DNA from: Chitinophagales bacterium
GTDB lineage: Bacteria; Bacteroidota; Bacteroidia; Chitinophagales; UBA8649
DNA length: 64,000 nt
Direction: 5' to 3'
Assembly (NCBI GenBank): GCA_049890075.1
Contig: JBMHCE010000033.1
Location: forward strand, 80,356 to 144,355
A model generated the notes under the pieces. That model saw only the letters and a program-made list of their open reading frames with translations, made no database searches and had not been told where the DNA came from. The position numbers and the translations under genes were made by a program. This document shows, piece after piece, positions 18,677 to 39,640 of this stretch (positions within the stretch are counted from its first letter, which is position 1; each line of letters opens with the position of its first letter).

Positions 18677-18697
18677 CAAGTGATAAATGGTTAAACT

Positions 18698-21055: not shown

Positions 21056-22357
21056 ATGGCTGAGTATCGAATTTTAATTCTTGCCTATGATTTTCCTCCA
21101 AACCTTTCTATTGGTGGACAGCGGCCGTGGTATTGGGCAAAACACCTTAATGAACATGATATTTACCCTGTGGTCATCACACGGCATTGGAATGCCTCAT
21201 TACATTCTGCCACTGACTGTGTTAAACCAAGCGCAAGCCAAGCTGTTCAAGACCTGAAGCATGACAACTACCGAATTATAAGACTTCCGTTTAATCCAGG
21301 GCTAAGGGATCGAATGACTTTGCATTATGGAGAAAACAAGCGGAAATGGTTACGTAAGGCAGTTTCGTTTTTTATGGCCCTTGGCGAGCATCTTCTTCCC
21401 AGAGTTGGGGATAAGTACTTTTTATACAAAGAAGCAAAACAACGAATTGCATCGCTTCATGTAGATGCCATTCTTGCTACTGGAGAGCCCTTTGTTTTAC
21501 ATACCTATGCCTCGCGCCTCGGAAAACAGTTTAACCTACCTGTTATCCTGGATTATAGAGATGGCTGGACGTCCAATCAAGAAAAGAAATCATTGTCGTT
21601 GGCCGAACAACTTCTACACCTATCTAACCGCTTTAGTGAGCGAAACAATCTAACTGGTGCGTCGCTTGTTACCGCAGCCTCGCCTTCATACCTCAAAAAA
21701 ATTCGAACGCAATTGATGAAAAAACAGGCGTCAGCTGTTATATATAACGGCTATGATAGCGAAGTGGTTGGCGAGCTTAAGCCCCCTAGTGCAAACAACG
21801 TATTCACTATTGCATATGCTGGAAGATTGTATGATTATCAGCGCCTCGAAAGCTTTCTTGAAGGCCTCCGGGTTTTTATAACCCACCATGCGGGTGCAAA
21901 AATTAAAGTTGTTTTTTATGGACTATCCTTTTATCCAGCAATGGTTAATCGTGTCAAGGTTTTTCATCAATCGCTAGGGGCACACCTTGCCTTTACTGAC
22001 AGAATAGCCTATCCTGCGCTAATGCAAAAACTTCATGATGCAGATGCCCTTCTGCTGTTATCGGCCCCAAAGGCGGATTGGTTAAGCGCGAAGGTCTTCG
22101 ACTATTTGCCTCACAAAAAGCCCATACTCCTTGTTGAAGGCGACCAAGGGGTTTTGGAAGAGATTTTGGGGGAAACATCGCTCGGCTTTATTTGCAAGAA
22201 CGCCAATGAGGTTGCTTCCTATCTCAAAGAGCTGTACGCTGCTTGGTCTCTTTCCAAAAACACCGAAATAAAGAGTTCATCTCATTCCCAAGCATTTACT
22301 AGACAAGCGAGCACTAAACAACTCGCTGATTGCCTACATAACATAAATCGACGCTGA
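21056..22357 (+). CDS. GT-B fold glycosyltransferase (GT4-like, divergent)
   Basis: 433 aa with an N-terminal ILILAYDFPPNLSIGGQRPWYWAKHL (Glyco_trans_4-like). The C-terminal half has LLLLSAPKADWLSAKVFDYLPHKKPILL. No clean E-x7-E is seen. Confidence 0.6.
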   Translation: MAEYRILILAYDFPPNLSIGGQRPWYWAKHLNEHDIYPVVITRHWNASLHSATDCVKPSASQAVQDLKHDNYRIIRLPFNPGLRDRMTLHYGENKRKWLRKAVSFFMALGEHLLPRVGDKYFLYKEAKQRIASLHVDAILATGEPFVLHTYASRLGKQFNLPVILDYRDGWTSNQEKKSLSLAEQLLHLSNRFSERNNLTGASLVTAASPSYLKKIRTQLMKKQASAVIYNGYDSEVVGELKPPSANNVFTIAYAGRLYDYQRLESFLEGLRVFITHHAGAKIKVVFYGLSFYPAMVNRVKVFHQSLGAHLAFTDRIAYPALMQKLHDADALLLLSAPKADWLSAKVFDYLPHKKPILLVEGDQGVLEEILGETSLGFICKNANEVASYLKELYAAWSLSKNTEIKSSSHSQAFTRQASTKQLADCLHNINRR

Positions 22358-24183
22358 TGTGTGGGATCCTTGGTTTAGTTTCATTACGTGATACTAAGAA
22401 AGAACAATCGCCCGAACGAGTCAAGGGCATCTTAAAACACCGAGGGCCTGATCGGTTTGCCTTTACACAACTTGGAGCTTGCACCCTTTGGCACTATCGA
22501 CTAAGTGTTATCGATCCTTCAGAACGCGGGAACCAACCCCTAACCACATCTTCTGGGCGATACACGTTGGTTTTTAATGGAGAAGTATACAATTATCAAC
22601 GCCTGAAAAAGCAGTTTAACCTGCCATGTGAAGGAGGGTCAGATAGTGAAGTGGTTTTACTGTTATTTGAGGCCTTAGGAAGCAAAGCACTCGAACACTT
22701 TGAAGGAATGTTTTCCCTGGCCATCTGGGACGCGCAAGAAAACGAGTTGCTTCTTGCACGAGATAGAATAGGAATAAAGCCCCTTTTCTATGCCGAAACC
22801 AAGGACACTGGTTTTGCCTTTTCCTCCGAAATAAAGGGGATTCAGGCTCTCGAGCAAGTAAGCCCAACCAAAAAATACATAGCAGACTACTTAAGCTTGG
22901 GCTTTGTTCCTGGAGAAAACACGCTCTTTCAAGGAGTCCAACAAGTCAAACCAGGATGTTACCTCCGAGTAAAAAATGGAAAGATTAGTCATCATACATT
23001 CTATTCATTATATGATCGCGTCAAAAAAGAACCCTCACCACCTAGATCGTACAGTGAAGCAAAAAAGTTATTACGAGAGCTCATTTACACCAGTGTGAGT
23101 GATCGTTTGGTTGCAGATGTACCCTTGGGTTGCTTCTTAAGCGGTGGTATCGACTCTAGTTTGGTCGTGGCCGTAGCCCAAGACCTCCTCGGTGGAAACC
23201 TAAAAACCTTTTCAATTGGATTTAAAGAAGCCGCCTTTAATGAGGCATCCTACGCTGCCAACATTGCACATTATCTCAACTGCGAACACCACACCAAGAT
23301 GTTTGGTCAGGATGACTTACTCGATATATTTTCCAACTTCCTCTCAATGACTGATGAGCCTTTTGGCGACACGTCATTACTACCCACCGCACTTGTCTCC
23401 CAGTTTGCACGAGAACACGTGACCGTTGCGCTTTCGGGAGATGGGGGAGACGAGGGTTTTTTAGGTTATGGGATGTATTCTTGGTCAAAACGGTTAGACA
23501 GTACAATGCTTCGATCTGTGGGTCGCGCTGCAAGTCCGCTTGTTAAACTCTTTGGAAACTCCCGCTACAAAAGGGCCTTTGCACTCTTTGAGCGGCATAA
23601 TAAAGACCAAAGACAACGCCATGTTTTTTCCCAAGAACAATACTTCTTTAGCCAGAAAGAGATCGGTTCCCTTGCCAATAAACCCAGTGCACCTTCTCCC
23701 ATACCCCCATTGCCCGCTTGGATGAGCGCTGAAGAAAAACAAGCCTTCTTTGACTATTGCTGGTATCTTCCTGACGACCTGCTGGTAAAGGTAGACCGTG
23801 CCTCCATGGCCCACAGCTTAGAGGTTCGAGTTCCTCTTTTGGACCACCGTATTGTTGAATTTGCTCTGCGCCTACCTGTGCATTGGAAAAAAAGAAAATC
23901 TGTTACAAAGTATATTCTCAAGGACATCCTTTTTGACCTTGTACCCAAGGAATATTTTAATCGTCCTAAACAAGGATTTAGTATTCCGCTGTCAACATAT
24001 CTAAAAGGACCACTAAGGCCATGGGTTGATCAACATTTAACAAGAAACGTTGTAACAAAACATGGGTGGGTAGAATATAGCATGGTGGAAGAATATAAAC
24101 GGCGGTTTTATAGCAAGGGCGAGGAATACCTTTACCACCGCGTCTTCCTCTTAACCTTACTTCATCAATGGCTAGAGAAGTAG
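22357..24183 (+). CDS. Asparagine synthase (glutamine-hydrolysing) family amidotransferase, paralogue 1
   Basis: 608 aa with MCGILG (Ntn Cys2), RLSVIDPS..GNQPL and the PP-loop FLSGGIDSS. Its start codon shares one nt with the upstream stop. Confidence 0.9.
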   Translation: MCGILGLVSLRDTKKEQSPERVKGILKHRGPDRFAFTQLGACTLWHYRLSVIDPSERGNQPLTTSSGRYTLVFNGEVYNYQRLKKQFNLPCEGGSDSEVVLLLFEALGSKALEHFEGMFSLAIWDAQENELLLARDRIGIKPLFYAETKDTGFAFSSEIKGIQALEQVSPTKKYIADYLSLGFVPGENTLFQGVQQVKPGCYLRVKNGKISHHTFYSLYDRVKKEPSPPRSYSEAKKLLRELIYTSVSDRLVADVPLGCFLSGGIDSSLVVAVAQDLLGGNLKTFSIGFKEAAFNEASYAANIAHYLNCEHHTKMFGQDDLLDIFSNFLSMTDEPFGDTSLLPTALVSQFAREHVTVALSGDGGDEGFLGYGMYSWSKRLDSTMLRSVGRAASPLVKLFGNSRYKRAFALFERHNKDQRQRHVFSQEQYFFSQKEIGSLANKPSAPSPIPPLPAWMSAEEKQAFFDYCWYLPDDLLVKVDRASMAHSLEVRVPLLDHRIVEFALRLPVHWKKRKSVTKYILKDILFDLVPKEYFNRPKQGFSIPLSTYLKGPLRPWVDQHLTRNVVTKHGWVEYSMVEEYKRRFYSKGEEYLYHRVFLLTLLHQWLEK

Positions 24184-25203: not shown

Positions 25204-26439
25204 GTGGCCACTGTCTTATACATAACATTTGACGGTATAACTGACCCCCTCGGAAGGTCGCAAATCCTTCCCTATCTCATCGGCTTACGGCAGCGTGGAC
25301 ACACCATTCATATCCTGTCACAAGAAAAACAAGATCAACTTAAGAACGACAAGGCATCAGTAGATCAGACGCTAGAAAAGCACGGTATTTATTGGGACTA
25401 CATCGTTTACAAAAACAAGCCAGCCATTATACAGCCCTTGGTTCAGCGGAGCAAAATCAAAAAAATGGCGTTTGAGATTATAGCTAATAAGCAGGTAAAA
25501 CTCACTCACTGTAGAAGTTATATGGCTGGATCTGTTGGACTAGAAATCAAAAGAAAGCATGGCATTCCCTTTGTCTTCGATATGCGCGGTTTTTGGGCCG
25601 ACGAAAGAAAAGAAGGGGGTCTTTGGCCATACAGCAACCCAATATACAGAGCCGTATACAAGCGCGTTAAGCGGCTTGAAAGAAAACTTCTTCAAAACGC
25701 TGACCATATCATATCCTTAACTCACAAAGGGAAAAATATAATAGAAGGGTGGAATCACATTAGAGGTTTTAGTGGGTCAATTTCGGTTATTCCCTGTTGT
25801 GCAGATCTAAAACACTTTGATCCTAGTCGCTATTCATCTAATGACAGAGAGACCTTACGTAAATCATATCATTTAGCCCATGAAGATGTTGTAATCGGAT
25901 ATGTAGGGTCCATTGGCACATGGTATATGTTAGATGAAATGTTGGACGCTTTTGCTATTTGGCAAAAACATATTCCCAATTTGAAGCTTTTCTTCTTGTC
26001 GAAACTCTCCCAAAGTGGTATACAACCAAAGCTTGACGCAAGAGAAATACATCCTGATTCTGTAAGAATCCAATCAACTAGTTATGACCATGTTCCCAAA
26101 CACATCGCAATGTTTGATGTTGGATTGTTTTTTATTCTGCCCGTCTTTTCGAAGTCGGCCTCATCTCCTGTTAAGCAAGGAGAGATGCTAGCCATGGGAT
26201 TGCCTGTTTTGTGTAATAGGGGAGTGGGAGACACCGATCGTGTGATTGAAGAAATTGATGAGGCCCTTTTAATCGACGAGTTTAACGAGAATGGATATAA
26301 GAAAGCCCTTCCTATACTTGGGGATAAGACGTATTCCAAAAGGATTGGCCCTTTGTGCCAAAGCACCGCAAAACGTTGGTTTGATGTTAAACAGGGTGTT
26401 GAGACCTATCATTCCGTTTACGAAAAACTCAGCCGCTAA
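25204..26439 (+). CDS. GT-B fold glycosyltransferase (GT4-like)
   Basis: 411 aa with a GTG start. It has an N-terminal LYITFDGITDPLGRSQILPYL and a C-terminal SSPVKQGEMLAMGLPVLCNRGVGD. Confidence 0.7.
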   Translation: MATVLYITFDGITDPLGRSQILPYLIGLRQRGHTIHILSQEKQDQLKNDKASVDQTLEKHGIYWDYIVYKNKPAIIQPLVQRSKIKKMAFEIIANKQVKLTHCRSYMAGSVGLEIKRKHGIPFVFDMRGFWADERKEGGLWPYSNPIYRAVYKRVKRLERKLLQNADHIISLTHKGKNIIEGWNHIRGFSGSISVIPCCADLKHFDPSRYSSNDRETLRKSYHLAHEDVVIGYVGSIGTWYMLDEMLDAFAIWQKHIPNLKLFFLSKLSQSGIQPKLDAREIHPDSVRIQSTSYDHVPKHIAMFDVGLFFILPVFSKSASSPVKQGEMLAMGLPVLCNRGVGDTDRVIEEIDEALLIDEFNENGYKKALPILGDKTYSKRIGPLCQSTAKRWFDVKQGVETYHSVYEKLSR

Positions 26440-27427
26440 AAGGGTGTTTGCTTTGGAGACTGCTAACTAATGGGTGGGCGTCTTCTGGATTTTTAGGGAG
26501 AGCTGGCGTCATATTCCTCATGGCGGTAAGAAGTTCTATTGCTGGTTGTGCATCGGCCAAAGAACAACTCTTACCGTTCAAAATATCTCGGTATACCTCG
26601 GTATGAAGGTCCATAAATCCATCACTAAAACTTACCTCTTGCTTATCTACCCTTAACCTTCTGTGGCTACCTGTTTTTGAATTGGTTGACCTTCCCGGAA
26701 TTGTACTTCCATCTATTGACAAGAAGTACCGCACTTTTGCATCTTGAAACTCGATGAGGCCCGCCTCTCTATCATGGCTTCGATCGTGTACCCTACAGGC
26801 TAGCGCCGGACCATATACCCACAACAGCATATCAAAAAAATGTATACCAATATTGGTAGCTAATCCGCCCGACTTTTCTTGACTTCCTTTCCAAGAGGCA
26901 TAGTACCAGTTGCCCCGTGGTGTTATATAGGTTAGCTCCACATCTGCCTTAGAAGGCTTACTGTGACCTGCCTCCATTTGATTTTTCCAAGCAAGTACTG
27001 AGGGGTGCTTCCGAAGTTGTAAAATTGGATGAACCTTTTTGTTTTCTTCTTTTTCCAATTGCAACAGCCCTGATACGTTCTTTGCATCTATTACAATAGG
27101 TTTTTCACAAATAACCTCCATACCTTGACGCAAACCAAATCGTATGTGGGCATCATGAAGGTGGTTTGGGCTACAAACCACTAGATGGGTGATTGGATTG
27201 CCCAATTGTCTTTGCTTATCTAAAAACCGATCAAATCGCTCAAATGAAGTAAAAAAGTAAGCGCTAGGAGCGTATTGATCAAGAATGCCTATGCTATCGT
27301 TAACGTCATATACAGCAGCCAACTCGTGGCCCAATTCTTGAATTGCCTTGTAGTGTCTTGGCGCAATATATCCTGCTCCACCAATAAGCGCAAATCGCTG
27401 AATGTTTTGGGATTTATCTTTTTTCAT
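26429..27427 (-). CDS. Gfo/Idh/MocA oxidoreductase, WbpB-like (UDP-GlcNAcA 3-dehydrogenase type)
   Basis: Start placed at the internal Met (MKKDKSQNIQRFALIGGAGYIAPRHYKAIQELGHEL...DSIGILD...FFTSFERFDR). The ATG shares 1 nt with the upstream TAA, consistent with translational coupling. The longer track ORF reaching 27541 would overlap the upstream gene by 115 nt. Confidence 0.75.
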   Translation of the reverse strand: MKKDKSQNIQRFALIGGAGYIAPRHYKAIQELGHELAAVYDVNDSIGILDQYAPSAYFFTSFERFDRFLDKQRQLGNPITHLVVCSPNHLHDAHIRFGLRQGMEVICEKPIVIDAKNVSGLLQLEKEENKKVHPILQLRKHPSVLAWKNQMEAGHSKPSKADVELTYITPRGNWYYASWKGSQEKSGGLATNIGIHFFDMLLWVYGPALACRVHDRSHDREAGLIEFQDAKVRYFLSIDGSTIPGRSTNSKTGSHRRLRVDKQEVSFSDGFMDLHTEVYRDILNGKSCSLADAQPAIELLTAMRNMTPALPKNPEDAHPLVSSLQSKHPFSG

Positions 27428-28011
27428 TAGACCAAGGTTAATCCCTTTGAAGTAAGCCGATACAACTCTCCGCCTTCTGGGCAAAAAGCTTCTTCGCCAG
27501 GATTCTTTAGATCTAGCTTGTGTCCTGACATGCTCACCCAACCTTGATGCGTTGCCGGATTACCATATACCAATTGGAACGGCTTAACATCTTTTGTTAC
27601 GACCGAACCCGCACCCACAAAACCGTAAGATCCTATTTCCACTCCACACACAATCGTTGCGTTGGCGCCAATACTAGCTCCTTTTCGTACGTAAGTTTGT
27701 TTAAACTGATCTTTTCGCACGAGGTGTGCCCTTGGGTTGATCACGTTGGTAAACACCATAGAGGGACCCAAAAAAACATCATCCTCACACACCACCCCCT
27801 CATAAATTGAGACATTGTTTTGGACTTTTACATTATTGCCCAATACACAGCGCGAAGCGATAAAACAGTTCTGACCAATTGTACACTCTTTTCCCATCTC
27901 TACACCTTGCATAATATGAGTAAAGTGCCAGATCTTACTTCCTTCACCTATCGTTGCCGGTTGATCAACTGTAGCTGAATCGTGAACAAAAACGTTTGAT
28001 TTGTGTATCAT
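27427..28011 (-). CDS. Left-handed beta-helix N-acetyltransferase, WbpD-like (UDP-2-acetamido-3-amino-2,3-dideoxy-glucuronate N-acetyltransferase type)
   Basis: 194 aa with hexapeptide repeats: IGEGSKIWHFTHIM...IGQNCFI...LGNNVKVQNNVSIYEGVVCEDDVFLGPSMVFTNVINPRA. Confidence 0.75.
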   Translation of the reverse strand: MIHKSNVFVHDSATVDQPATIGEGSKIWHFTHIMQGVEMGKECTIGQNCFIASRCVLGNNVKVQNNVSIYEGVVCEDDVFLGPSMVFTNVINPRAHLVRKDQFKQTYVRKGASIGANATIVCGVEIGSYGFVGAGSVVTKDVKPFQLVYGNPATHQGWVSMSGHKLDLKNPGEEAFCPEGGELYRLTSKGLTLV

Positions 28012-28026
28012 TTTCTCTTACCTCTG

Positions 28027-28593
28027 TTAGCAATCACTGGATGAAAAATATGGCTTAAAAAAAGAAAGCATAACCCAAAACAATACTCCATATATCATAA
28101 GAATATAAGTATATGAGTGGCTAAAATAAAAGAATTGCTTCCACTCTGCGTATAACATAAAACCGAGGGTTGTTATCCTAAACCAATTTAGAAATACAAT
28201 GGTCGCCATTGCCCCAATCCAATAGGTTAGTCGGCGAGGTAAAGGAAGGGGGTTCCATAAAAACACTAGCGTCATGATAGCCATTGGGGCAACACCCACA
28301 CAATGAAAAGCAACAAACATGGGGGGTGATCCGGGCAGAAAAATGTTTTGAGAATTTATAACAACCGGCACGTGTGTTAGCCATTCAAGGATAGGTTTTG
28401 CCATCCGTATGTACATCGTTGAGAACATTACATGGAGGTCATCCCAGTGGGGTCGAAACAACAATGACTTCTCCATAAGCTCTCGAAACGAAAACCAAAT
28501 AAGATATATAACAAGGATTCGAACGAAAAATGCAATGTATCTTGAGGATTCGTCTTGGTGGCCTTTAAGGGAAAAGATTTCTTTGAGGTTCAT
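28027..28593 (-). CDS. Small polytopic membrane protein, exosortase/archaeosortase-family-like (XrtF-like size)
   Basis: 188-196 aa with about 5-6 TM segments. It has a candidate Cys/Arg/His triad: FHC106VGV, NWFR147ITTLG and FSH167SYTY (numbering from the 196-aa ORF). The Cys-to-Arg spacing of 41 residues matches that of sortase-like exosortases. The start may be 28593 or 28617. Confidence 0.45.
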   Translation of the reverse strand: MNLKEIFSLKGHQDESSRYIAFFVRILVIYLIWFSFRELMEKSLLFRPHWDDLHVMFSTMYIRMAKPILEWLTHVPVVINSQNIFLPGSPPMFVAFHCVGVAPMAIMTLVFLWNPLPLPRRLTYWIGAMATIVFLNWFRITTLGFMLYAEWKQFFYFSHSYTYILMIYGVLFWVMLSFFKPYFSSSDC

Positions 28594-28600
28594 ATCAACT

Positions 28601-29713
28601 ATGAAGCAAAGCAACAAAAAAGTAATGGAAAAGACTAGGAGGCTTCTTATACTGTGTCCCTATCCCAAGGGTTGTGCAGGCTCCCAGCGTTTTCGTTTTG
28701 AACAATATATTCCCCTTTGGGAGGCTAACAATATAGAAGTTAGTCATCACTCCTTTTTAACGGAATGGGGGTGGAATATTGTATATAAAAAAGGGGTTGG
28801 CTTGTTGAAGATACTTGCCACACTGCTCGGTTTTTGCCGACGCCTTTCATGTTTATTTACTCTAAAGCGCTATGATCTGGTCTTTATTCATAGGGAGACA
28901 TGTCCAATTGGACCCGCTTTTTTTGAATGGTGGATTGCTCGCGTTGCAAAAAAAAAGATTGTCTACGATTTCGATGATGCCATTTGGATAAACAACACGA
29001 CCAATGCTTGGATTCATCGACTCAAAAATCCAGGGAAAACTAAGAAAATATGCACTTGGTCTTCCATGATATTTGTTGGAAACCAGTTTTTAGCAGATTT
29101 TGCATCTCAGTACAACAAGAGCGTCATTGTTATACCTACCACTATAGATACCACAAACCACCACAACACAACAAAAGATTATACACAAGAAAAAGATGTG
29201 TTGTGTATTGGATGGACTGGTAGCCACTCGACCTTACCCTACCTAACAGAAATCGATGGAGCCTTAAATCAAATTCAAAACAAATATGCTATTCAAATAA
29301 AAATCATTGCCAACTCACGGCCAGCTAACCTAGGTGTTGCTTTCCACTTCGAGGCTTGGGATAAGCAGCGTGAAATTGACCAATTGCTTGATATTGATAT
29401 TGGCATCATGCCACTACCTGATAAAGAGTGGGCCCAAGGAAAGTGTGCTTTCAAAGCGCTTCAATATCTAAGTTTGGAGATTCCGTGTATTGCTTCACCT
29501 GTTGGTGCCAACAAAAAGGTTGTGCTTCCAAATATAACCGGGCTTTGGGCGGAATCCGAAAAGGAATGGGTGCAAGCATTAGAAATGCTTCTATTGGATG
29601 GTCTGCTTAGAAAGAAAATGGGGAAGGCGGGAAGAAGGCATGTAGAGAAAAACTACTCTGTTTCAAGCCAAAAAGACTTAATTCTTGAATGTATTAATCG
29701 TTTAATGCTGTAA
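28601..29713 (+). CDS. GT-B fold glycosyltransferase (GT4-like)
   Basis: The track ORF starts at 28409, but its first 64 codons are antisense to the exosortase-like gene. The likely start is MKQSNKK (28601) or MEKTRR (28625). Motifs include LLILCPYPKGCAGSQRFRFEQY and a C-terminal KALQYLSLEIPCIASPVGAN. Confidence 0.65.
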   Translation: MKQSNKKVMEKTRRLLILCPYPKGCAGSQRFRFEQYIPLWEANNIEVSHHSFLTEWGWNIVYKKGVGLLKILATLLGFCRRLSCLFTLKRYDLVFIHRETCPIGPAFFEWWIARVAKKKIVYDFDDAIWINNTTNAWIHRLKNPGKTKKICTWSSMIFVGNQFLADFASQYNKSVIVIPTTIDTTNHHNTTKDYTQEKDVLCIGWTGSHSTLPYLTEIDGALNQIQNKYAIQIKIIANSRPANLGVAFHFEAWDKQREIDQLLDIDIGIMPLPDKEWAQGKCAFKALQYLSLEIPCIASPVGANKKVVLPNITGLWAESEKEWVQALEMLLLDGLLRKKMGKAGRRHVEKNYSVSSQKDLILECINRLML

Positions 29714-31108
29714 GACCTCCTCCTTGTCGTTCTTTTCCGCTCTTAGAGAATAGAGGGCGGCTAGTAGAATACCAGTTGTCGGTAAACACGGGATTTTGTA
29801 CCGAACTAGAGCACCAAAATTATAGGCAGTAAACCCTACAGCAAATCCAAAAATTATAGAAAACAACAACGCAAATTGTAAAATGGGATACCGGTGGAAA
29901 AGGCGGGAAAGCCTGTTATCTGGTGTTGTACTTCTTTGAAAAAACACAAGAAAGCCAATTGAAAACAAGGCCAGCGATTCAAGGGAGCTCAACGCCATAA
30001 GCACGTTACTTACCTCCCAAGGAAAGGGCCTAAAAAAAGTGGTTACCAAGGCTATTGGTGCCTTCGTAATAAGACCTAGCGTAGAAAAATCAGTGTTTCC
30101 TAAACTGTATGAAGAGCCTTCGTAGTCATATACTTCTTCTACCTGGTGGTGCCATTGCTGCATGGCTTGAGCTTCATATTGAAGATTCTCTACAGAATAC
30201 CTACCTAGCACATCGCCCAATTGAGACAACGCAACCAAAGACAAAAGGATAGAAACGGTGGCCAGTACGGGCGACAAAGAAGAAGACCTGTTTCGTGATG
30301 ACAACAACCTTCTTTCAGATACATACCAAAGAAATGCGGCGGGAATAAATGCCACCAAAATGTAGCTTTTTATGACAGCTACAAAGTACCCAAGAATGAG
30401 CATAAATAAAATGTTAACTATCGGCCTTTGGCGTAAAATAACTCCACGATAAAAACAGGCGATAACCCATGTTATTCCTCCTAATGTAAGGGTGTCTTTT
30501 AATAAACCACTACCCCAGAAAACAACCGAAGGAAACAGCAAGATGGCAATGCCAAGGTTTCGCTTGGATACCGTGGGAAGGGCCTGACAGGAAATCCTGT
30601 AAAGCTGCCACAGTCCGGAAAAAGCAAAGACAGAAAACAAGAGGGCAACATTGGTATAAATCCCAAAGCAAACTATATTGACTATAGATGCTATGCGCAC
30701 CACCATATATGATGCAGTGTCAAATGCTCGTAATGATGTCATTAAAAAATACGCATCATCAGCCTCTTCTGAATAGGATGTAAAAACTAACTGTAGACCT
30801 AGTAAAAGATCATTTTTGAGTGTCTTTGACACCCTCAGCATTCTTTCAAAGTAATAGACTGTGTCTCCGTCTTGGTAATAAAACCAGTAGATGATCCCGA
30901 TTGCAAAAGAGCTAACAAGCTTTGCTAAAAGACCCAGATTAAATAATCTACGATCTATGCTGTCAGCAAAACCTGAGGAAATTCTGAGTCCTACAAAAAG
31001 AATTATACCAACATATACAGGACCAATAATAAAATCCAATAGCTCCACGTAATGAAGATACACCTTTACTAAAATCCTTTTATTTTGCAAGGGTATGTGC
31101 GGTATCAT
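29702..31108 (-). CDS. Polytopic (about 11-12 TM) membrane protein, candidate repeat-unit polymerase (Wzy/EpsG-like)
   Basis: About 468-480 aa. It has an N-proximal QDGDTVYYFERM resembling the EpsG/Wzy GxDxxxYxxxF motif. One ~55-aa soluble loop (RYSVENLQYEAQAMQQWHH...) precedes FFRPFPWEV. The start is uncertain (ATG 31144 or 31108, or GTG 31063/31048). It is the only large polytopic protein of unknown role in the locus. Confidence 0.4.
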   Translation of the reverse strand: MIPHIPLQNKRILVKVYLHYVELLDFIIGPVYVGIILFVGLRISSGFADSIDRRLFNLGLLAKLVSSFAIGIIYWFYYQDGDTVYYFERMLRVSKTLKNDLLLGLQLVFTSYSEEADDAYFLMTSLRAFDTASYMVVRIASIVNIVCFGIYTNVALLFSVFAFSGLWQLYRISCQALPTVSKRNLGIAILLFPSVVFWGSGLLKDTLTLGGITWVIACFYRGVILRQRPIVNILFMLILGYFVAVIKSYILVAFIPAAFLWYVSERRLLSSRNRSSSLSPVLATVSILLSLVALSQLGDVLGRYSVENLQYEAQAMQQWHHQVEEVYDYEGSSYSLGNTDFSTLGLITKAPIALVTTFFRPFPWEVSNVLMALSSLESLALFSIGFLVFFQRSTTPDNRLSRLFHRYPILQFALLFSIIFGFAVGFTAYNFGALVRYKIPCLPTTGILLAALYSLRAEKNDKEEVLQH

Positions 31109-32966
31109 TGGTTGGATTGGAACAGGTGCACCTTTTAACAACAAGGAGTTTGATGCTGCGCTTCAGGATTTGAAACACCGCGGCCCCAACCACAGGGATT
31201 TTGTTGTTTTTGACAATAAGGTTTTTCTCGGGCATAGCCGTCTTTCCATTATTGACCTCGATTCAAGGTCCAACCAGCCCATGAAAAGTAATTGTGGGCG
31301 CTATTGGATTGTCTATAACGGAGAGTGCTTTAACTACTCCGCTCTTCGCGAAGAGTTATCTAAACAGGGAGCTGTTTTCCAAACATCGTCCGATACTGAA
31401 GTTTTACTTCAGGGGCTTATTCTAGAAGGTGAAGGTTTTATTGAGAGGGTTAACGGATTTTTTGCCTTTGCCTTCTATGACACTATTACTGAAGAAATTC
31501 TACTTGGGCGAGATCGGCTAGGCATTAAACCTTTATACATTTATTACTCAGGTGATGGTCTTCGATTTAGTTCGGAGCTAAGGCCTCTTAAAAAACTCGG
31601 TGTTCCTTTTGCCATAAACCATCAGGCCCTCAACGAGTACCTTTTATATAGCTACGTGCCCGAGCCGCTTTGCCTAATTGATGGAATTGTCAAGGTTTCC
31701 CCAGGAACGACGTTGCGATATTCCCAGAAACACGGGGCAAAACAGCATTGCTATTACACAATCGGTGAGCACAAGAAGCAGAAAGAACTTTCTTTTGATG
31801 AAGCCGCGCGTCAATGTAAAACCAAAATCAAGGAAGCTGTTGAGCTTCGAATGGTGGCAGATGTTCCCGTCGGTTGCTTTCTTAGTGGAGGGATTGATTC
31901 TTCGATTATTACCTCAGTTGCTCAAAAACTACATGGTGGGGTCCAAACGTATTCTATAGGGTTTGAAGGGCGAAACTTTCTAGATGAAACCAGCGCAGCC
32001 CGTCAAACCGCCAACTTTCTTGGCACCAAACACAACAATATTATTTTGTCCGATAAGATAATCTTTGATCATTTAGACTTGTTCTTTGATGCTATGGATG
32101 AGCCTTTTGCGGATTCCTCTGCACTAAACGTTTTCCATCTTTGCCGCAGTGTAAAAAACCACATAACGGTTGCATTGGGTGGGGATGGAGCCGACGAGGT
32201 GTTCGGTGGCTACAACAAACACCGTGCATTGCAAATGAGTTTAAACCCGCTCTACCGGTTTATCCTATCTACAACTAGCCCCCTTTGGCAACTTGCATCC
32301 TCTAGTCGTGGATCGGCTTTTCGCAACAAAACAAGACAACTCAAACGATTGAGCGCTGGAATGAGCAAAAGACCTAAAGGCCGATATGCTCATTGGGCGG
32401 CCTTTTCCAACCAAAAGGATGTAAGTCAGTGCCTCAAAAAACCCCATTTTGGTGAACCCTCCTTCATGGATCTAATGCCTAATCGTATAGACAGTCTCAA
32501 TCATTTTCTATATGCCGATCAAAAAATTGTCTTGCCTTCGGACATGCTAACCAAAGTGGATAAAATGTCCATGGCGTCAAGCCTTGAAGTGCGCGTTCCA
32601 TTTTTAGACCACCACGTGGTTGATTTTGCTAACAGCCTTCCTAGCGCATACAAGGTTAAGGGCTCGACCACTAAGCGCCTTATACGCAAAGGCTTTGAAA
32701 ATGATTTACCCTATGAAGTATTTCACCGGCCTAAACAAGGATTTGAAGTTCCGTTGGAAGACTGGATTAGAAACGTCTTTAGTGGGAGGATTGAACAATT
32801 TATTCAACAAGATTTTCTCGACGCACAAGGGCTATTTTTATACAAACCCTTACGTCGGCTATTTGAATCCAATCAAAAAAGCGGCAACGCTGAACAAAGT
32901 GCGTTTTTATACTCCTTTATGGTTTTTCAAGAATGGTGGAAACGTTTAAATGTAGGCAATGAGTAG
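31095..32966 (+). CDS. Asparagine synthase (glutamine-hydrolysing) family amidotransferase, paralogue 2
   Basis: 623 aa with MCGIIG (Cys2), RLSIIDLDSRSNQPM and the PP-loop FLSGGIDSS. Confidence 0.9.
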   Translation: MCGIIGWIGTGAPFNNKEFDAALQDLKHRGPNHRDFVVFDNKVFLGHSRLSIIDLDSRSNQPMKSNCGRYWIVYNGECFNYSALREELSKQGAVFQTSSDTEVLLQGLILEGEGFIERVNGFFAFAFYDTITEEILLGRDRLGIKPLYIYYSGDGLRFSSELRPLKKLGVPFAINHQALNEYLLYSYVPEPLCLIDGIVKVSPGTTLRYSQKHGAKQHCYYTIGEHKKQKELSFDEAARQCKTKIKEAVELRMVADVPVGCFLSGGIDSSIITSVAQKLHGGVQTYSIGFEGRNFLDETSAARQTANFLGTKHNNIILSDKIIFDHLDLFFDAMDEPFADSSALNVFHLCRSVKNHITVALGGDGADEVFGGYNKHRALQMSLNPLYRFILSTTSPLWQLASSSRGSAFRNKTRQLKRLSAGMSKRPKGRYAHWAAFSNQKDVSQCLKKPHFGEPSFMDLMPNRIDSLNHFLYADQKIVLPSDMLTKVDKMSMASSLEVRVPFLDHHVVDFANSLPSAYKVKGSTTKRLIRKGFENDLPYEVFHRPKQGFEVPLEDWIRNVFSGRIEQFIQQDFLDAQGLFLYKPLRRLFESNQKSGNAEQSAFLYSFMVFQEWWKRLNVGNE

Positions 32967-34155
32967 TCAGAAAATTCGTGTTTTACGTATCGCCAATCGC
33001 CTCAATATCGGAGGCCCAACCTATAACGTCTGCTACTTAACCAAACACCTTGGTGATTCTTATGAAACGCTACTTTTGGCCGGTCAAGAGGACGCCTCAG
33101 AAGGCAGCTCATTATATGTTGCAAAGTCAATGGGGCTTTCTCCAAGGCTAATTCCATCTATGCAGCGAGCAATTAACCTGTCTCGAGATAGAAAAGCTTA
33201 TTTAGAAATACGAAAGGTTATTCGTGAGTTTAAACCACACATTGTACATACTCATGCAGCCAAGGCCGGAGCTATTGGGCGTTATGCGGCCTACAAAGAA
33301 AACGTGCCTGTCGTCTTGCATACTTACCATGGCCATGTGTTTCACTCCTATTTTGGTAGGATAAAAACAACCTTTTTCCTGCTTGTTGAGCGGTTCTTGG
33401 GGCGAAAGAGTAATGCATTGATTGCAATTAGTCCTTTACAAAAACAAGAGCTTTCAAGCGTATTTCATATTGCTCCATCGTCAAAATTTCGAGTTGTGCC
33501 GCTTGGTTTTGACCTAGATCGTTTCTTTACAAACATGGATGACAAAAGGTTATCCTTTCGCAAGGAATGGGGAGTTGCTGAAGACGTATTTGCCCTTGCA
33601 CTTATAGGAAGGCTTGTGCCCGTAAAGGACCACGCCTTCTTTCTTGAATCAATAGCTTTTGTTAAAAACAATTCTAACGAAAAAATTCAAGTGTTTCTCG
33701 TTGGGGATGGTGAGGAAAAAAACGCCTTAATGGTACATTGTGATGCGCTTAATCTATCTTTCAATACGGCACCCGACCCAAATGCGGACATCATTTTTAC
33801 ATCATGGATTACAGAGGTTGATCGGGTTTTGGCCGGTGTAGACCTCGTGTGTCTCACCTCAAAAAACGAAGGAACACCGGTAAGTTTAATTGAGGCTGGG
33901 TGTGCCGGAAAACCTTTTATTTCTACTGATGTGGGTGGGGTTCGAGATATCCTTCTCGACTCCGAACAAGGCATGGTGACACCACAAGGTGATCGCAATG
34001 CTTTTCAAAAAAGCTTGCTTTCTTGGGTTAAAGAATCCAAACCGGGATTTGTTTTAAACCTTGCCCTACGCAAGCAAATAGCTCAACGATTTAGTTACAA
34101 ACAACTCTGCTCGACGATGTCAAAAGTCTATGAGCAATTGCTTACTTCCCAATAA
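32959..34155 (+). CDS. Glycosyltransferase family 4 (GT-B)
   Basis: 398 aa with NRLNIGGPTYNV and NEGTPVSLIEAGCAGKPFISTDVGGVRDIL. Confidence 0.85.
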   Translation: MSSQKIRVLRIANRLNIGGPTYNVCYLTKHLGDSYETLLLAGQEDASEGSSLYVAKSMGLSPRLIPSMQRAINLSRDRKAYLEIRKVIREFKPHIVHTHAAKAGAIGRYAAYKENVPVVLHTYHGHVFHSYFGRIKTTFFLLVERFLGRKSNALIAISPLQKQELSSVFHIAPSSKFRVVPLGFDLDRFFTNMDDKRLSFRKEWGVAEDVFALALIGRLVPVKDHAFFLESIAFVKNNSNEKIQVFLVGDGEEKNALMVHCDALNLSFNTAPDPNADIIFTSWITEVDRVLAGVDLVCLTSKNEGTPVSLIEAGCAGKPFISTDVGGVRDILLDSEQGMVTPQGDRNAFQKSLLSWVKESKPGFVLNLALRKQIAQRFSYKQLCSTMSKVYEQLLTSQ

Positions 34156-34948
34156 ATACGTTCCTTTATATTCAATAGCCGTGAGAAGTTTTCAAATTAT
34201 AGCCATACTCCTTTTATTGAGTTCATGTAAGATCCTTGTTCCAGACCGTATGTTCAGGAAGGGAAATTTTGAGCAGTTCGTCGCAGAAAAGGATAAAATA
34301 GAAGATTACTCGATTCGACCCGGAGACGTGATAAGACTACAACTTTACACGCAAGACGGTTTTCCGATTCTTGATGCCTTAAAAATGGATGGAAATCAAG
34401 GTGTAAATGGCTCTCAATCGGTACAAATAGGACAACTGGTTCCATTTCTTGTGACCCAAGATGGATATGTAGACCTCCCCATCCTTGGAGAAACCTATGT
34501 CCAGGGTATGAAAGATCAAGAGCTTGAGCGGTTTCTCGAACAACGCGCTGAAGAACTTTTTGTAAATCCCTTTGCTATTGTTTCTGTTCTTGGGAGAAGG
34601 TGTTTGGTGTTTAAGGGGGGGAGCGCCTCTGTTATTCCGCTGGAAACAAGGCCCACCACATTGCTCGAAATTATCGCAAGAAGTGGAGGGTTGGGTCAAT
34701 ATGATAGAGCGGACAAAATTTATATTATCCGTGGGGATTTAAACGATCCTTTGCTCTATGAAATAGATCTTTCTGAAATGTCGAACATTGCCGATGGGGG
34801 AATGATTGTTCAGAGTAATGATATCATATACATCCATAGAAGACCCCGTGTGGTTGGAAGAGCAAGTACAGAAATTTCATCCGTTACCTCGTTACTATTG
34901 TCATCATCTTCTCTTATAACTACTGTTTTGCTGCTTCGCCAACAATAA
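34130..34948 (+). CDS. wza: Polysaccharide export outer-membrane lipoprotein (Wza-like; Poly_export + SLBB)
   Basis: 272 aa with a lipoprotein-type signal ILLLLSSC, IRPGDVIRLQLY, and a second beta-grasp block NDIIYIHRRP. It is followed by a Wzc-type gene. The symbol is used generically. Confidence 0.8.
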   Translation: MSNCLLPNKYVPLYSIAVRSFQIIAILLLLSSCKILVPDRMFRKGNFEQFVAEKDKIEDYSIRPGDVIRLQLYTQDGFPILDALKMDGNQGVNGSQSVQIGQLVPFLVTQDGYVDLPILGETYVQGMKDQELERFLEQRAEELFVNPFAIVSVLGRRCLVFKGGSASVIPLETRPTTLLEIIARSGGLGQYDRADKIYIIRGDLNDPLLYEIDLSEMSNIADGGMIVQSNDIIYIHRRPRVVGRASTEISSVTSLLLSSSSLITTVLLLRQQ

Positions 34949-34963: not shown

Positions 34964-37417
34964 GTGTCTGATTCACCCAAAACAAAACAACAATCCTCCG
35001 TCCTGTACGATCGGTTCAATGTTGGGCTGCTGCTCTATGTTTTGAGGAAGTCTTTCAAATGGTTTTTTCTCTTCATGTTGTTGTCTTCAGGTGTTGCCCA
35101 TATTTTTCTCCACTTTTCTACCAGAATATACTCTTCTAAAGGAGTTCTAATTCATATCGCCGGAGAGGATAAACAGAGCCTTCTTGGTGTTGACAAATCA
35201 CTTCCGACACAAGATTTTACCCCAACTGATTTTCAACAAGATGTCCGGGTTATAACATCTCCTATTGTAGTTGATAACGCATTCAGCAACAAAGGACTGA
35301 ACTATGTTTTTTACGAAGTAGGTGATTTCCGCTCTCTAGAGATTTTTCCTAATCCATACTTTACGATAGACAGTTTTTATCAGCAACCCGCAATGCGCAG
35401 GGTCAACATTGACTACAACATTAATATCGATCAAAAGAAAGATAGTGTTCGGTTGGACTATGTCTATCAAGGAAAAAGCTGGGGGGGCTTCCTTAAACCA
35501 GGAAAGCCTTTTGCTGATGAAAACATCTACTTGGCTATATCAAACCTAGACCAATTGCTGTTAGAGGGGGGGGCAGAAAATCAAAAAAACATCTTGTTTA
35601 AGGTAAAAACCAACGAGGCGCTGGCCGATGAACTCATGGCCATCACACGAATAGAGCCCAACAAGGAAACGTTCGCCATTCAGGTTTCTGCGCGTCACCC
35701 AAGTAAGTCTAAGGCGGCCCTAACCGTTGATTTGTTAATGGAATCCTTTATGGATTTTCACCTTGACCAAAAAATGGAGAGCCTTGAGCAATCCATTGCA
35801 TTCCTTGACAAACAAATTGACTCTATCAAACCCCTTTACGACGATGCCCTGGTAGCCGTTAGAAACGCTGAGGCGCAAAAAGGGTATAGAAATATAGAAG
35901 CACTTGGTGGTGGATTATATGGCGATGTTAAGGCATTACAAAAGAAACTGGTTCGCCTTGAATATGTTACAAGTGTGCTTGAATGGTTTGTTGTTATGAT
36001 TGAGCAAGAGGAAAACATTAATCTTGCAAGCACCCAACTTTCTGGGGATGAGTTTGACGGCATTACAAGAACGCTCTCTGTTGATGAAATCTTAAAGCTA
36101 GAATCTGATAAAGAGGAGGCACTTATGCAAGTAACCCCTGAGCATCCTACTGTCGTGCTTATCGAAAGAAATCTCGACAAAGCCAGAGCAACACTAATCG
36201 CCCAGGTTCAAATAAATATCGATAAGTATAGGCAGGAAAAAGATGCGGTTATTGAAGAAATCAACAAACTATTAGAAGAGCTTGATTTGCTACCATTGTT
36301 TGAGGCTGAATATCTAAGGTTAAAAAGAGATTATGAGGTGAAGTCTTCCTTTTATAACAGCCTTCTTGATCGTAAAGCTTCATTTTCTTTATCAAGAGCA
36401 GGTATTGTCAGTGATTATATCGTTTTAGAAGAACCCAAGGTTTCTGAAAAACATGTAGCACCAAATGACAGTTTTATTCGTTTTGTTGGACTGGCTATTG
36501 GGGCCATTCTATCGCTTATATTGGTTGTGTTTCGCTACATAACTCACAAGGAAATCATAAACATTGAAGATGTTACCTCCCAGACAGACACTTCATTGCT
36601 CGGTGTAATTCAGCGGTACTCTGAACGACTACCCATGTCCTCTATTGTTGTCACCAATCGGCCAAAAAGTGGGATTTCTGAGTCATTCAGAGGAGTTCGC
36701 AGTAATCTCGAATTTCTTGAGGCAGAAGATGACTTTCGTTCTATTGCGGTAACGTCTACTATACCTGGTGAAGGAAAAACATTTGTTGCTATCAACCTTG
36801 CTGCAATTATTGCCATGCAGGGTAAGAAAGTCCTAATCGTAGATGTTGATTTAAGAAAACCTCGTATTCACAAGATTTTCGACCTCCCCAATGCTGCCGG
36901 CATGAGTACCTTGCTAAATAAACGATCATCAAAAGAGGATGTCACCTTTTCTACCTCCGAAGAAAATCTTTGGGCAATACCCGCTGGCCCAATTCCACCA
37001 AATCCTTCTGAATTGGTGGGTAGTGAGTCATTTGTTCGGTTCCTTGACGAGATAAAGACATCCTTTGACGTAGTTATTTTTGACACCCCTCCAATTGGTT
37101 TGGTAACTGACTCCATCCCTGTTATTAGTAAGGTTAATAATCCCATTTATGTGTTGAGGGCTGACTACTCACACCGAGCGTTTATAGGTCACATTGAGTC
37201 AACTAAAGAAAACCTGCAAGTACCGAACTTATCCATCATTATGAATGATTACGGAAGGGGCGTTTCAGGTTCTTACTATAATTATGGGTATGGCTATGGG
37301 TACGGTTATGGGTACGGATACGGGTATGGGTATGGATACGGGTACTACTCCGATCCGGACAAACGGGAGAAAAGAGAGCGTGGTGGATTCTTCTCAAGGT
37401 TTCGTAGGAAATCATAG
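34964..37417 (+). CDS. wzc: Polysaccharide co-polymerase / BY-kinase (Wzc-like tyrosine autokinase)
   Basis: 817 aa with a GTG start, two TM segments flanking a ~450-aa periplasmic coiled-coil domain, and Walker A TSTIPGEGKTFVAINLA. VLIVDVDLRKP and VIFDTPP are also present. The C-terminal Tyr cluster is SYYN(YG)10YY. Confidence 0.9.
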   Translation: MSDSPKTKQQSSVLYDRFNVGLLLYVLRKSFKWFFLFMLLSSGVAHIFLHFSTRIYSSKGVLIHIAGEDKQSLLGVDKSLPTQDFTPTDFQQDVRVITSPIVVDNAFSNKGLNYVFYEVGDFRSLEIFPNPYFTIDSFYQQPAMRRVNIDYNINIDQKKDSVRLDYVYQGKSWGGFLKPGKPFADENIYLAISNLDQLLLEGGAENQKNILFKVKTNEALADELMAITRIEPNKETFAIQVSARHPSKSKAALTVDLLMESFMDFHLDQKMESLEQSIAFLDKQIDSIKPLYDDALVAVRNAEAQKGYRNIEALGGGLYGDVKALQKKLVRLEYVTSVLEWFVVMIEQEENINLASTQLSGDEFDGITRTLSVDEILKLESDKEEALMQVTPEHPTVVLIERNLDKARATLIAQVQINIDKYRQEKDAVIEEINKLLEELDLLPLFEAEYLRLKRDYEVKSSFYNSLLDRKASFSLSRAGIVSDYIVLEEPKVSEKHVAPNDSFIRFVGLAIGAILSLILVVFRYITHKEIINIEDVTSQTDTSLLGVIQRYSERLPMSSIVVTNRPKSGISESFRGVRSNLEFLEAEDDFRSIAVTSTIPGEGKTFVAINLAAIIAMQGKKVLIVDVDLRKPRIHKIFDLPNAAGMSTLLNKRSSKEDVTFSTSEENLWAIPAGPIPPNPSELVGSESFVRFLDEIKTSFDVVIFDTPPIGLVTDSIPVISKVNNPIYVLRADYSHRAFIGHIESTKENLQVPNLSIIMNDYGRGVSGSYYNYGYGYGYGYGYGYGYGYGYGYYSDPDKREKRERGGFFSRFRRKS
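37283..37348 (+). repeat. Imperfect hexanucleotide (TAY-GGN)x10 + TACTAC tract encoding the (YG)10YY tail of Wzc
   Basis: Read directly: tat ggg tat ggc tat ggg tac ggt tat ggg tac gga tac ggg tat ggg tat gga tac ggg tac tac. Confidence 0.95.
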
Positions 37418-37437: not shown

Positions 37438-38517
37438 ATGGAGCAGCAATTCTATTGGTTCGTTTTATTCGTAGCAATATTCCTTTTTGGGTACACGACG
37501 CATGCGTTGTTTCTTCGCTTCAGTAGGGGACTTGGTGTTCGGCAACCATCAGCTCTTGGACAAGAGCGCTGGAGTGCGGAGGTCAAACCATCTGTTGGCG
37601 GACTTACCTTTTTTATTTGCTTTAGTGTCTCCATAAGCCTTTTACCCATTGAGGGTATCAATATGCTTAGTGAGCTCAAACGAACTTCATTTACCGCTGC
37701 CTGCTGTCTAGGGTTTTTGTTAGGCTTGGCAGATGACACGTATGACACGGTTCCTATTGTGAAGTTTTTGGGTCAAGTTCTGTGTGGGACGATTTTGTGC
37801 TTGGGGGGTATTGTAATACAATTCAGCGGAAATGTGTTTGTCGATTATGCATTAACCACCTTCTGGGTTATTGCCATAATGAATTCCATCAATATGTTGG
37901 ATAATATGGATGCTATAACCACTTCTGTTTCCATATCTATTGTGCTTACTGCCATTGGAATGGCCCTTCTTATTGTCTCACCTAGCCTTTGGGTCTATCC
38001 ATGTATTATTGGCGTCTTAGCAAGCCTTATTGCCTTTTTACCCTATAATTGGAACCCTGCTAAAATCTATATGGGCGATACGGGCTCCCAATTCCTTGGT
38101 GTCTTCTTGGCTGGCTTGGGTGTTGAGTTATTTTGGAACCACCGAGTTGATTATGGAGGAATCGTTCAAGTACAACAGTTTATGATTCCTATTCTTGTGT
38201 TTGCTGTACCTATAATGGATACAATAACGGTGTTCGTAAGACGCCTTCTGCGCAGGACATCACCTTTTGTTGGGGGTAGAGACCATTTGGCTCACCACTT
38301 GGTTTATTGTGGGTTTTCAGAGCAACAAGTCGCTATAATCCTGTTTTTCCTTTCCATTGTGTTTGGAGTCCTTTCCCTTAGTTTTTTCTTCGAGCAATAC
38401 CCATTTAACCTGTCTCTTATAGGATGGTCTCTTGTACTGCTAAACATATTCTTAGTTGTCTTCTTTGTTTTACAGCTTTACTATAACCGAGGGGCTGAAA
38501 AAAAGGGTCAACCCTAA
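37438..38517 (+). CDS. Polyprenyl-phosphate N-acetylhexosamine-1-phosphate transferase (MraY/WecA family, Glycos_transf_4), initiating enzyme
   Basis: 359 aa with about 10-11 TM segments. Motifs are GLADDTYD, NSINMLDNMDAI (equivalent to the NxxNxxDGxDG loop) and YMGDTGSQFLG. Confidence 0.8.
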   Translation: MEQQFYWFVLFVAIFLFGYTTHALFLRFSRGLGVRQPSALGQERWSAEVKPSVGGLTFFICFSVSISLLPIEGINMLSELKRTSFTAACCLGFLLGLADDTYDTVPIVKFLGQVLCGTILCLGGIVIQFSGNVFVDYALTTFWVIAIMNSINMLDNMDAITTSVSISIVLTAIGMALLIVSPSLWVYPCIIGVLASLIAFLPYNWNPAKIYMGDTGSQFLGVFLAGLGVELFWNHRVDYGGIVQVQQFMIPILVFAVPIMDTITVFVRRLLRRTSPFVGGRDHLAHHLVYCGFSEQQVAIILFFLSIVFGVLSLSFFFEQYPFNLSLIGWSLVLLNIFLVVFFVLQLYYNRGAEKKGQP

Positions 38518-38540: not shown

Positions 38541-38891
38541 TTGGCTAAATTGTTAATCATTTTTTGTTGCACAGGATTCGGAGGAATTTTTCGGTACCTG
38601 TTCTCTTTTGTCCCCTATGTTAAATCTGGAGATCACGGGGTTCTGGTGTCCAATATCGTAGCTTGTGCTATTATGGGCTGTCTCTTGGCAATTCCTGTAA
38701 ACAACCCCATTATCAGAATTGGTATAGCTAGTTTTTGTGGCGGTCTCTCTACATTTAGCGGATATATTGCCTTTTCATGTTTGTCCGCCCCAAGTACAAG
38801 CCAATCCTTATTCTATCATCTTGCAAGCATCGGAATGGGCCTGGTCTTTTTTATGGGAAGTTACTATAGCTGTAAATCGCTCTTCGCTTAG
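38541..38891 (+). CDS. crcB: Fluoride ion channel CrcB/FluC
   Basis: 116 aa with a TTG start and 4 TM segments. It has GFGGIFRY near the N-terminus and SFCGGLSTFSGY. Confidence 0.85.
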   Translation: MAKLLIIFCCTGFGGIFRYLFSFVPYVKSGDHGVLVSNIVACAIMGCLLAIPVNNPIIRIGIASFCGGLSTFSGYIAFSCLSAPSTSQSLFYHLASIGMGLVFFMGSYYSCKSLFA

Positions 38892-38916
38892 ACTTATTTG
38901 GTATATTTGCCCGTCT

Positions 38917-39000: not shown

Positions 39001-39019
39001 CTTTCTTAACACTTTTCAG

Positions 39020-39574: not shown

Positions 39575-39640
39575 GTCATAACGAATATAATTTAAGCTGC
39601 AATTTTGCTTGTTTGGCCTTAGTATATGCATCTTTGGTCT

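Follow-up and report, generated by a model that had tools for sequence, protein, structure and literature searches.

We have analyzed a stretch of 64,000 nucleotides from an uncultured marine Chitinophagales bacterium (contig JBMHCE010000033.1, hereafter the window) and found that a small membrane protein gene lying inside its polysaccharide cluster, named here xrt, codes for a member of the known exosortase/archaeosortase family. The membership is confirmed by profile matches and conserved residues, and the protein belongs to a small, unnamed subfamily of short forms. As for its role, we consider it slightly better than an even bet that this is a short-form exosortase that sorts secreted proteins encoded elsewhere in the genome, which would carry a signal beyond the current models.

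In the searches with hidden Markov models (HMMs) of exosortases, the xrt product scored above the curated cut-offs of both general family models, with 29.2 bits for Pfam PF09721 Exosortase_EpsH (gathering score 25.7) and 35.8 bits for the NCBIfam exosortase/archaeosortase signature TIGR04178 (cut-off 23). An earlier note on this DNA, made from the letters of the sequence, had called the protein exosortase-like; this was borne out, and more firmly than its reader could claim, with both models passed and the Cys, the Asn-x-x-Arg and the His kept. Actually, a current annotation pipeline with TIGR04178 would already yield "exosortase/archaeosortase family protein" for this gene. The EpsH/exosortase family has been defined by three motifs, Cys-x-Gly, Asn-x-x-Arg and His-x-x-x-Gly (Haft et al., 2006; PMC1569441). 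The first of them is found as C98-V-G100, with C98 invariant and G100 nearly so in an alignment of 25 sequences, and the second as N136-W-F-R139, invariant at both ends. In this alignment, which reaches down to 19% identity, the only invariant residues are W33, C98, N136, R139, H159 and Y168, and four of these (C98, N136, R139 and H159) remain invariant after adding proteins designated XrtF or "exosortase/archaeosortase family protein" by JGI or NCBI. The sequence motifs from which a catalytic triad had been suspected, FHC(106)VGV, NWFR(147)ITTLG 41 residues on, and FSH(167)SYTY, were all found in the translation (C106, R147 and H167 of the 196-residue model correspond to C98, R139 and H159 of the 188-residue model used here), and the invariance of the three residues over such distances indicates that their arrangement is not due to chance. 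The Cys-to-Arg spacing of 41 residues is also that of Cys173 and Arg214 of the archaeosortase ArtA, both critical by mutagenesis (PMC9263693).

Among the models of named subfamilies, the best match was XrtX (NF046081), with 53.2 bits against a cut-off of 170 and an alignment of nearly full length (residues 18-181 over model positions 3-161 of 168). XrtY (NF046083) gave 32 bits against a cut-off of 160, the scores of XrtM and XrtR were negligible, and the XrtF model (TIGR04128, cut-off 90 bits) had no match at E<=10. The profile lengths of the named subfamilies XrtF, XrtX, XrtY and XrtH (174, 168, 168 and 158, respectively) are of the same order as the protein found here. When 1.84 billion representative proteins were searched exhaustively with HMMER, only 25 matches were retrieved at E<=0.001, consisting of one cluster at 50% identity (the clade of the window and its fragments) plus proteins of 175-205 residues at 33% identity or less. 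Of the eight nearest relatives, each examined individually, none reached the XrtX cut-off, and the distant relatives scanned (17 of 17) matched the signature TIGR04178 plus the XrtX, XrtF and XrtY models.

The open reading frame of xrt was confirmed on the minus strand at 28027..28617, giving 196 residues from a TTG, with a stop 14 codons upstream of this TTG. An alternative start is the ATG at 28593, which gives 188 residues and is equivalent to the ATG of "MNxKE" that relatives at 72-99% identity have in common. For several relatives a model of 207 residues begins at an upstream ATG (MRSLL...); this codon is ATA in the window (28648-28650), so that the extension is unavailable here. The TTG start is possible, but it is not common to the relatives. 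Since the ATG at 28593 is common to the homologues and the start of the 207-residue model is ATA in the window, we take this ATG as the likely start. A plus-strand open reading frame that overlaps xrt (28409-29713) is a glycosyltransferase gene, the true start of which, judging by the relatives, is 28601 (or 28625). With a start at 28601, the two genes are therefore divergent and without coding conflict. Their start codons are only 7 bp apart (28593-28601), and therefore each promoter must sit within the coding sequence of the other gene. In loci of relatives (designated L and a number) this spacing is 0 bp in L001 (10000-10001), 30 bp in L003 and 80 bp in L006.

The AlphaFold2 (AF2) model of the xrt product, computed from the 25-sequence alignment, had a mean predicted local distance difference test (pLDDT) value of 91.3 and a predicted template modelling (pTM) score of 0.84. 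It contains five long helices (residues 15-42, 47-73, 96-112, 118-148 and 152-183) and a beta-hairpin at about 77-92. The helix 47-73 is amphipathic, with a mean hydropathy of -0.13, and therefore the protein likely has four transmembrane (TM) helices and one periplasmic or interfacial helix. The previous estimate of five to six TM segments was roughly right. Over the family alignment the net charges were +1.2 for the N-terminus, +2.4 for the loop 113-121 and +0.6 for the C-terminus, with about -0.6 for the region 37-95 and -0.4 for the loop 149-153. By the positive-inside rule these counts point to an N-terminus inside, a periplasmic region 37-95 and three helices running out-in, in-out and out-in. 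In this topology Cys98 would lie at the periplasmic start of helix 3, Arg139 nine residues from the periplasmic end of helix 4 and His159 seven residues into helix 5, and the three residues are thus predicted near the periplasmic membrane face or outer leaflet of helices 3, 4 and 5. In EpsH, too, the triad has been predicted on the outer side of the membrane, in three TM helices that follow one another (Haft et al., 2006; PMC1569441). A Foldseek comparison of the AF2 exosortase model with the PDB returned only noise (best E 1.7, TM-score below 0.36).

The gene is under strong purifying selection. The ratio of nonsynonymous to synonymous substitution rates (dN/dS) was 0.08-0.10 against five relatives with 71-80% amino acid identity, synonymous sites being near saturation in these comparisons. 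It is also the first gene of a tight operon on the minus strand, in which an acetyltransferase gene begins 15 bp past the xrt stop; in L003 the stop of xrt and the start of the acetyltransferase overlap by 4 nt. Contigs from four seawater metatranscriptomes depleted of rRNA match at 99% or more and together span the whole of xrt (27960-28633, 28114-28608 and 27992-28546), although such contigs do not tell the strand and DNA may have been carried over. The contig at 27960-28633 reaches from the interior of the acetyltransferase gene that follows xrt, across the junction, to a point 40 nt ahead of the xrt ATG. This is consistent with xrt being transcribed in situ, and co-transcribed with the acetyltransferase gene.

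The arrangement around xrt is syntenic in marine metagenomes and metagenome-assembled genomes (MAGs) labelled Saprospirales, Chitinophagales or Bacteroidetes, and in relatives at 72-82% identity it is conserved throughout. A search with the close-clade alignment found the exosortase of this clade in only four GTDB species representatives. The nearest outgroups, P0011 (33% identity) and P0013 (29%), have the same module, composed of Wza, a GT4 glycosyltransferase, a membrane protein of about 440 residues, a second glycosyltransferase and xrt. By these searches, then, xrt is restricted to a small marine lineage of Saprospirales/Chitinophagales and two sister lineages.

More distant short exosortases were seen in different surroundings. 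In L015 (6085-8552) and L016 (6067-8564) the gene of a GldB lipoprotein is followed by that of a protein of 285-293 residues and then by a short xrt (P0014 and P0016 are the exosortases of these two loci). The 285-293-residue protein had no match in Pfam or NCBIfam and its stop abuts the xrt start; these genes may represent a distinct exosortase system that has a partner of its own. In L017 (8001-11351) the short exosortase P0018, of 205 residues, is flanked by genes for 64 and 268 residues of no assigned kind, and lies about 1.2 kb from a gene for a PMT_2 (GT-C) membrane glycosyltransferase. Besides, a housekeeping block (43567-50766) with genes for a protein of about 1050-1117 residues, a small HATPase_c_2-like protein, ybeY, mnmG/gidA and a lipoprotein-like protein is located about 15 kb from xrt in the window and directly abuts xrt in L006-L008 (L006 8538-16326). 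The protein of about 1050 residues had no Pfam match.

The membrane protein of the module, which we call M440, belongs to a large Bacteroidota family with at least 654 homologues, all of them named hypothetical. It had no NCBIfam match, and its Pfam matches (DUF2142 and, for one member, PMT_2) were all below threshold. The AF2 model had a pLDDT of 83, and the best folds in the PDB were DPY19, STT3, ArnT, ALG9 and ALG12, all weak matches with E of 0.05-0.9 and TM-scores of about 0.3-0.4. We tentatively regard M440 as GT-C-like, as a lead and not as a finding. This protein had previously been put forward as a candidate polymerase; the fold and HMM hints, weak as they are, make it look more like a GT-C glycosyltransferase than like Wzy. 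Strongly conserved motifs of the family are YYxxGDT, PSVFFWGSGLLKDT and YNFGALVRYKIP, and its C-terminus carries a conserved motif (RYKIP) followed by a TM helix and a basic tail. The genes for M440 and the glycosyltransferase divergent from xrt converge in the window with an overlap of 12 bp (29702-29713), while in L005, the locus of one of the two nearest outgroups, the stop of the M440 gene and the start of xrt overlap by 17 nt. We rejected the possibility that M440 is an obligate partner of the exosortase. Through M440, 80 metagenome loci were retrieved, many on short contigs and more than 25 extending several kb on both sides, and of these only L019, which comes from the clade of the window itself, has xrt (L018, a second contig of the close clade, spans 2.5 kb and is too short to tell). 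Again, xrt was absent beside M440 in L009, a complete Roseivirga genome, and in L010, a Chitinophagales MAG. The M440 proteins of the xrt-bearing outgroups have 35-36% identity to that of the window, and those of the loci without xrt 37-39%. As the M440 family is mostly found without xrt, the exosortase is a lineage-restricted addition to a widespread module and not an obligate part of it.

We also looked for possible substrates. The scan for a C-terminal TM helix with a basic tail, over the window and 17 related loci, found only polytopic membrane proteins (Wzm, WecA and exosortases), in agreement with the earlier note, where no protein with a PEP-CTERM-like sorting signal had been recognized in the window. 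No genes for PrsK, PrsR, PrsT or PEP-CTERM proteins were seen either. Equally right was the statement that xrt has no small companion gene, for which the gaps of 15 bp downstream and 7 bp upstream leave no room. The description of the exosortase as an orphan is another matter. Most PEP-CTERM genes form single-gene operons at scattered places of the genome, and the exosortase gene is nearly always found among exopolysaccharide (EPS) genes (Haft et al., 2006; PMC1569441). An orphan cannot be concluded from 64 kb because the substrates of exosortases are normally scattered around the genome, and their absence from the window is the expected picture. In our assessment the window shows the normal situation for the family, an EPS locus being its classical and name-giving context. 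The polysaccharide-linked target that had been suggested is neither supported nor excluded.

Reasoning by analogy from XrtA and ArtA, and following the model of Haft et al. for the family, we infer for the xrt product a peptidase activity, a type of substrate and, possibly, a coupling to the glycan of the cluster. The enzyme would be a cysteine endopeptidase embedded in the membrane and facing the periplasm, possibly a transpeptidase. It would recognize secreted proteins that stay anchored in the inner membrane through a C-terminal motif, a TM helix and a basic tail, cut off this anchor through a thioacyl intermediate on Cys98 and pass the protein to an acceptor, so that it becomes associated with the cell surface or the exopolysaccharide. 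Its substrates would come from genes in other parts of the genome and bear a signal outside the reach of present models, as has been reported for XrtF of Bacteroidota.

Several facts weigh against this reading. No candidate substrate was seen in the 64 kb of the window or in the loci of relatives, of about 20 kb. In the NCBIfam scan every named subfamily stayed below its cut-off, and annotation therefore offers no cognate signal to assign. The motif His-x-x-x-Gly does not hold, H159 being invariant but followed at +4 by Tyr163 (HSYTY); a Gly at this position is missing in proteins named XrtF too. The helices number only 4-5, where the classical EpsH/XrtA has 8 or more, the profile search found no relative by sequence in the PDB, and no exosortase structure was found for comparison. 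Finally, we know of no short-form bacterial exosortase for which peptidase activity has been shown. The departure from HxxxG, together with a length half of that of XrtA and general-model scores only modestly above threshold, would also fit an exosortase remnant that is catalytically inactive or structural, or a small membrane protein of another kind picked up by the models through its hydrophobic composition. We find this hardly credible given the invariance of the candidate catalytic residues across very divergent relatives, the dN/dS of about 0.09, the XrtX match over nearly the full model and the existence of several named subfamilies of similar length. If the protein is a bona fide sorting exosortase, its signal might be of the ordinary PEP-CTERM type and the enzyme simply a divergent short form similar to XrtX or XrtF. 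The general family membership and the dispersion of PEP-CTERM genes as single-gene operons agree with this, and the part of this genome inspected amounts to 64 kb; but no PEP-CTERM-like tail appeared there or in the related loci, and we hold this account to be rather unlikely.

A different possibility is that the enzyme works within the polysaccharide pathway itself, for instance joining the glycan of this cluster, or a glycosylated carrier, to a protein or lipid acceptor, or processing a membrane protein of the cluster, possibly together with M440. In all three lineages that have xrt it is found inside the same module (glycosyltransferase, M440, GT4, Wza), in the clade of the window it appears to be co-transcribed with sugar-modifying enzymes, and the overlap of M440 and xrt in L005 and the proximity of the L017 exosortase to a PMT_2 gene point in the same direction, as does the lack of a sorting-signal protein nearby in the window and related loci. 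The RYKIP motif, TM helix and basic tail at the end of M440 proteins also speak for it, but this C-terminal motif is not specific to the loci that bear xrt. The module works without an adjacent exosortase, xrt being found only in L019 among the 80 loci and lacking in L009 and L010, and location among EPS genes is the norm for exosortases whose protein substrates are dispersed. Moreover, disruption of epsH in Methylobacillus left the production of its polysaccharide, methanolan, unaffected (PMC1569441). All considered, a role of this type seems improbable to us. In its most specific form, the clade would be devoid of any PEP-CTERM-type clients and the enzyme would act with the GT-C-like M440 through the periplasmic Cys-Arg-His site, moving a carrier protein or peptide onto a sulfated or amidated glycan (or the reverse) or processing a component of the cluster. 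If true, this would be a polysaccharide-directed rather than a protein-sorting exosortase; to our knowledge no exosortase has a non-protein substrate, and we give this specific form a slim chance.

The genes around xrt are listed in Table 1. The operon continues after the acetyltransferase with an oxidoreductase gene, the start of which was set at MKKDKSQN (331 residues) following the relatives, and the cluster around it further holds an epimerase/dehydratase and several GT4 glycosyltransferases.

Table 1. Coordinates of xrt and neighbouring genes in the window.
Feature	Position	Strand	Basis or remark
Short-form exosortase (xrt)	28027..28593	-	PF09721 and TIGR04178 above cut-offs, invariant residues, AF2, dN/dS, metatranscriptome contigs
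Hexapeptide-repeat (LbH) sugar acetyltransferase, operon gene 2	27427..28011	-	Pfam Hexapep; best match of NeuD/PglB/VioB type, below cut-off
GFO/IDH/MocA oxidoreductase, operon gene 3	26429..27424	-	Pfam PF01408/PF02894; order the same in L001-L004
Divergent GT4-like glycosyltransferase, about 370 residues	28601..29713	+	Glycos_transf_1, 28.2 bits; beside xrt or M440 in L001-L010
Polytopic membrane protein M440, about 448 residues, tentatively GT-C-like	29702..31048	-	Weak DUF2142/PMT_2; AF2; GTG start from family alignment
AsnB-like glutamine amidotransferase, copy 1	22357..24183	+	448-454 bits with TIGR03108 across both copies
AsnB-like glutamine amidotransferase, copy 2	31095..32966	+	Pfam Asn_synthase/GATase_7; TIGR03108, 454 bits against 817
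GT4 glycosyltransferase, conserved core module	32959..34155	+	Conserved in L001-L010
Wza-type outer-membrane polysaccharide export protein	34130..34948	+	Pfam Poly_export, SLBB_2
Wzc-type chain-length determinant/tyrosine autokinase	34964..37417	+	Pfam GNVR, AAA_31; TIGR01007, 157.5 bits against 108
WecA/MraY-family initiating phosphoglycosyl transferase	37438..38517	+	Pfam Glycos_transf_4; best NCBIfam match TIGR02380 (wecA), below cut-off

The two AsnB-like genes, Wza, Wzc, the GT4 genes and a CE4 deacetylase, which the earlier note had counted in this neighbourhood, are all present. The last of them is probably outside the cluster and without relation to the polysaccharide genes. In the region 38541-39631, crcB (fluoride channel) and tRNA-Leu(GAG) come between the polysaccharide cluster and the CE4 gene, and the CE4 protein best matches peptidoglycan GlcNAc deacetylases. 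We considered whether the neighbours belong to the families of the XrtA/PEP-CTERM system, which they resemble, and rejected this, all of them being far under the equivalog cut-offs (TIGR03108, TIGR03018, TIGR03007, TIGR03027 and TIGR03006). The scores were 448 and 454 bits against 817 for the AsnB-like proteins, 115 against 231 for the kinase, 54 against 279 for the chain-length determinant, 30 against 180 for the exporter and 36 against 276 for the CE4 deacetylase. Joined to the cluster on its upstream side, at 7044-19831, is a second glycan system, a Wzm/Wzt ABC exporter (with the Wzt C-terminal domain) accompanied by at least five GT2 glycosyltransferases, a Branch-family enzyme and three sulfotransferase genes (9162-9857, 15937-16707 and 17735-18676). 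The sulfotransferases and the Wzm/Wzt system suggest that the product is a sulfated polysaccharide. No gene in the cluster from 7 to 38.5 kb had a Pfam match to Wzx or Wzy, and an Rfam scan of the window gave no match.

Exosortases are widespread, and the few studied experimentally are the classical ones (XrtA, the cyanobacterial CrtB and the archaeal ArtA). Among the short forms of Bacteroidota we know of a deletion phenotype only for XrtF, and of a substrate for none. What these short enzymes cut is a question already known in the field. To this xrt adds an unnamed short-form subfamily that is apparently expressed in the ocean, restricted to a small marine lineage plus two sister lineages and tied to a single polysaccharide module, with known operon partners. 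It is a reasonably clean and compact case for asking what short exosortases do, and reveals no new mechanism by itself.

When compared with known systems, the protein of the window resembles XrtX and XrtY, with which it shares the length class of about 170-190 residues and the Cys/NxxR/His core and which are its best-scoring named models, but it falls far below both cut-offs; a literature search for XrtX or XrtY found no paper describing them. XrtF (TIGR04128; Fjoh_1448 of Flavobacterium johnsoniae) is also a short form of Bacteroidota of similar size, with C98, N136, R139 and H159 aligned. Its deletion in F. johnsoniae abolishes biofilm formation and impairs surface colonization, and its substrates, likewise still unknown, are predicted to be unlike PEP-CTERM proteins (PMC10936215). 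In contrast, the window protein has only 18-19% identity to proteins named XrtF, has no adjacent exosortase F system-associated protein (TIGR04127) but an acetyltransferase and a glycosyltransferase as neighbours, and is embedded in a polysaccharide cluster. This last feature is shared with EpsH/XrtA of Proteobacteria (TIGR02602/PF09721), which belongs to the same Pfam family, has the Cys-x-Gly and Asn-x-x-Arg motifs and a triad predicted at the periplasmic face, and is also found in an EPS cluster with genes for Wza, a Wzc-type kinase, an AsnB-type amidotransferase and GT4 glycosyltransferases. The differences are that the window protein is much shorter in helices, has HxxxY in place of HxxxG and lacks an EpsI-like extension, and that its neighbours stay under the XrtA-system cut-offs. 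A further comparison is with ArtA of Haloferax volcanii, an archaeal enzyme with Arg253 instead of His as the third critical residue, a known PGF-CTERM signal and lipid attachment; yet it shares the TIGR04178 signature and the same spacing from Cys to Arg, and is the experimental ground on which these residues are called catalytic (PMC9263693).

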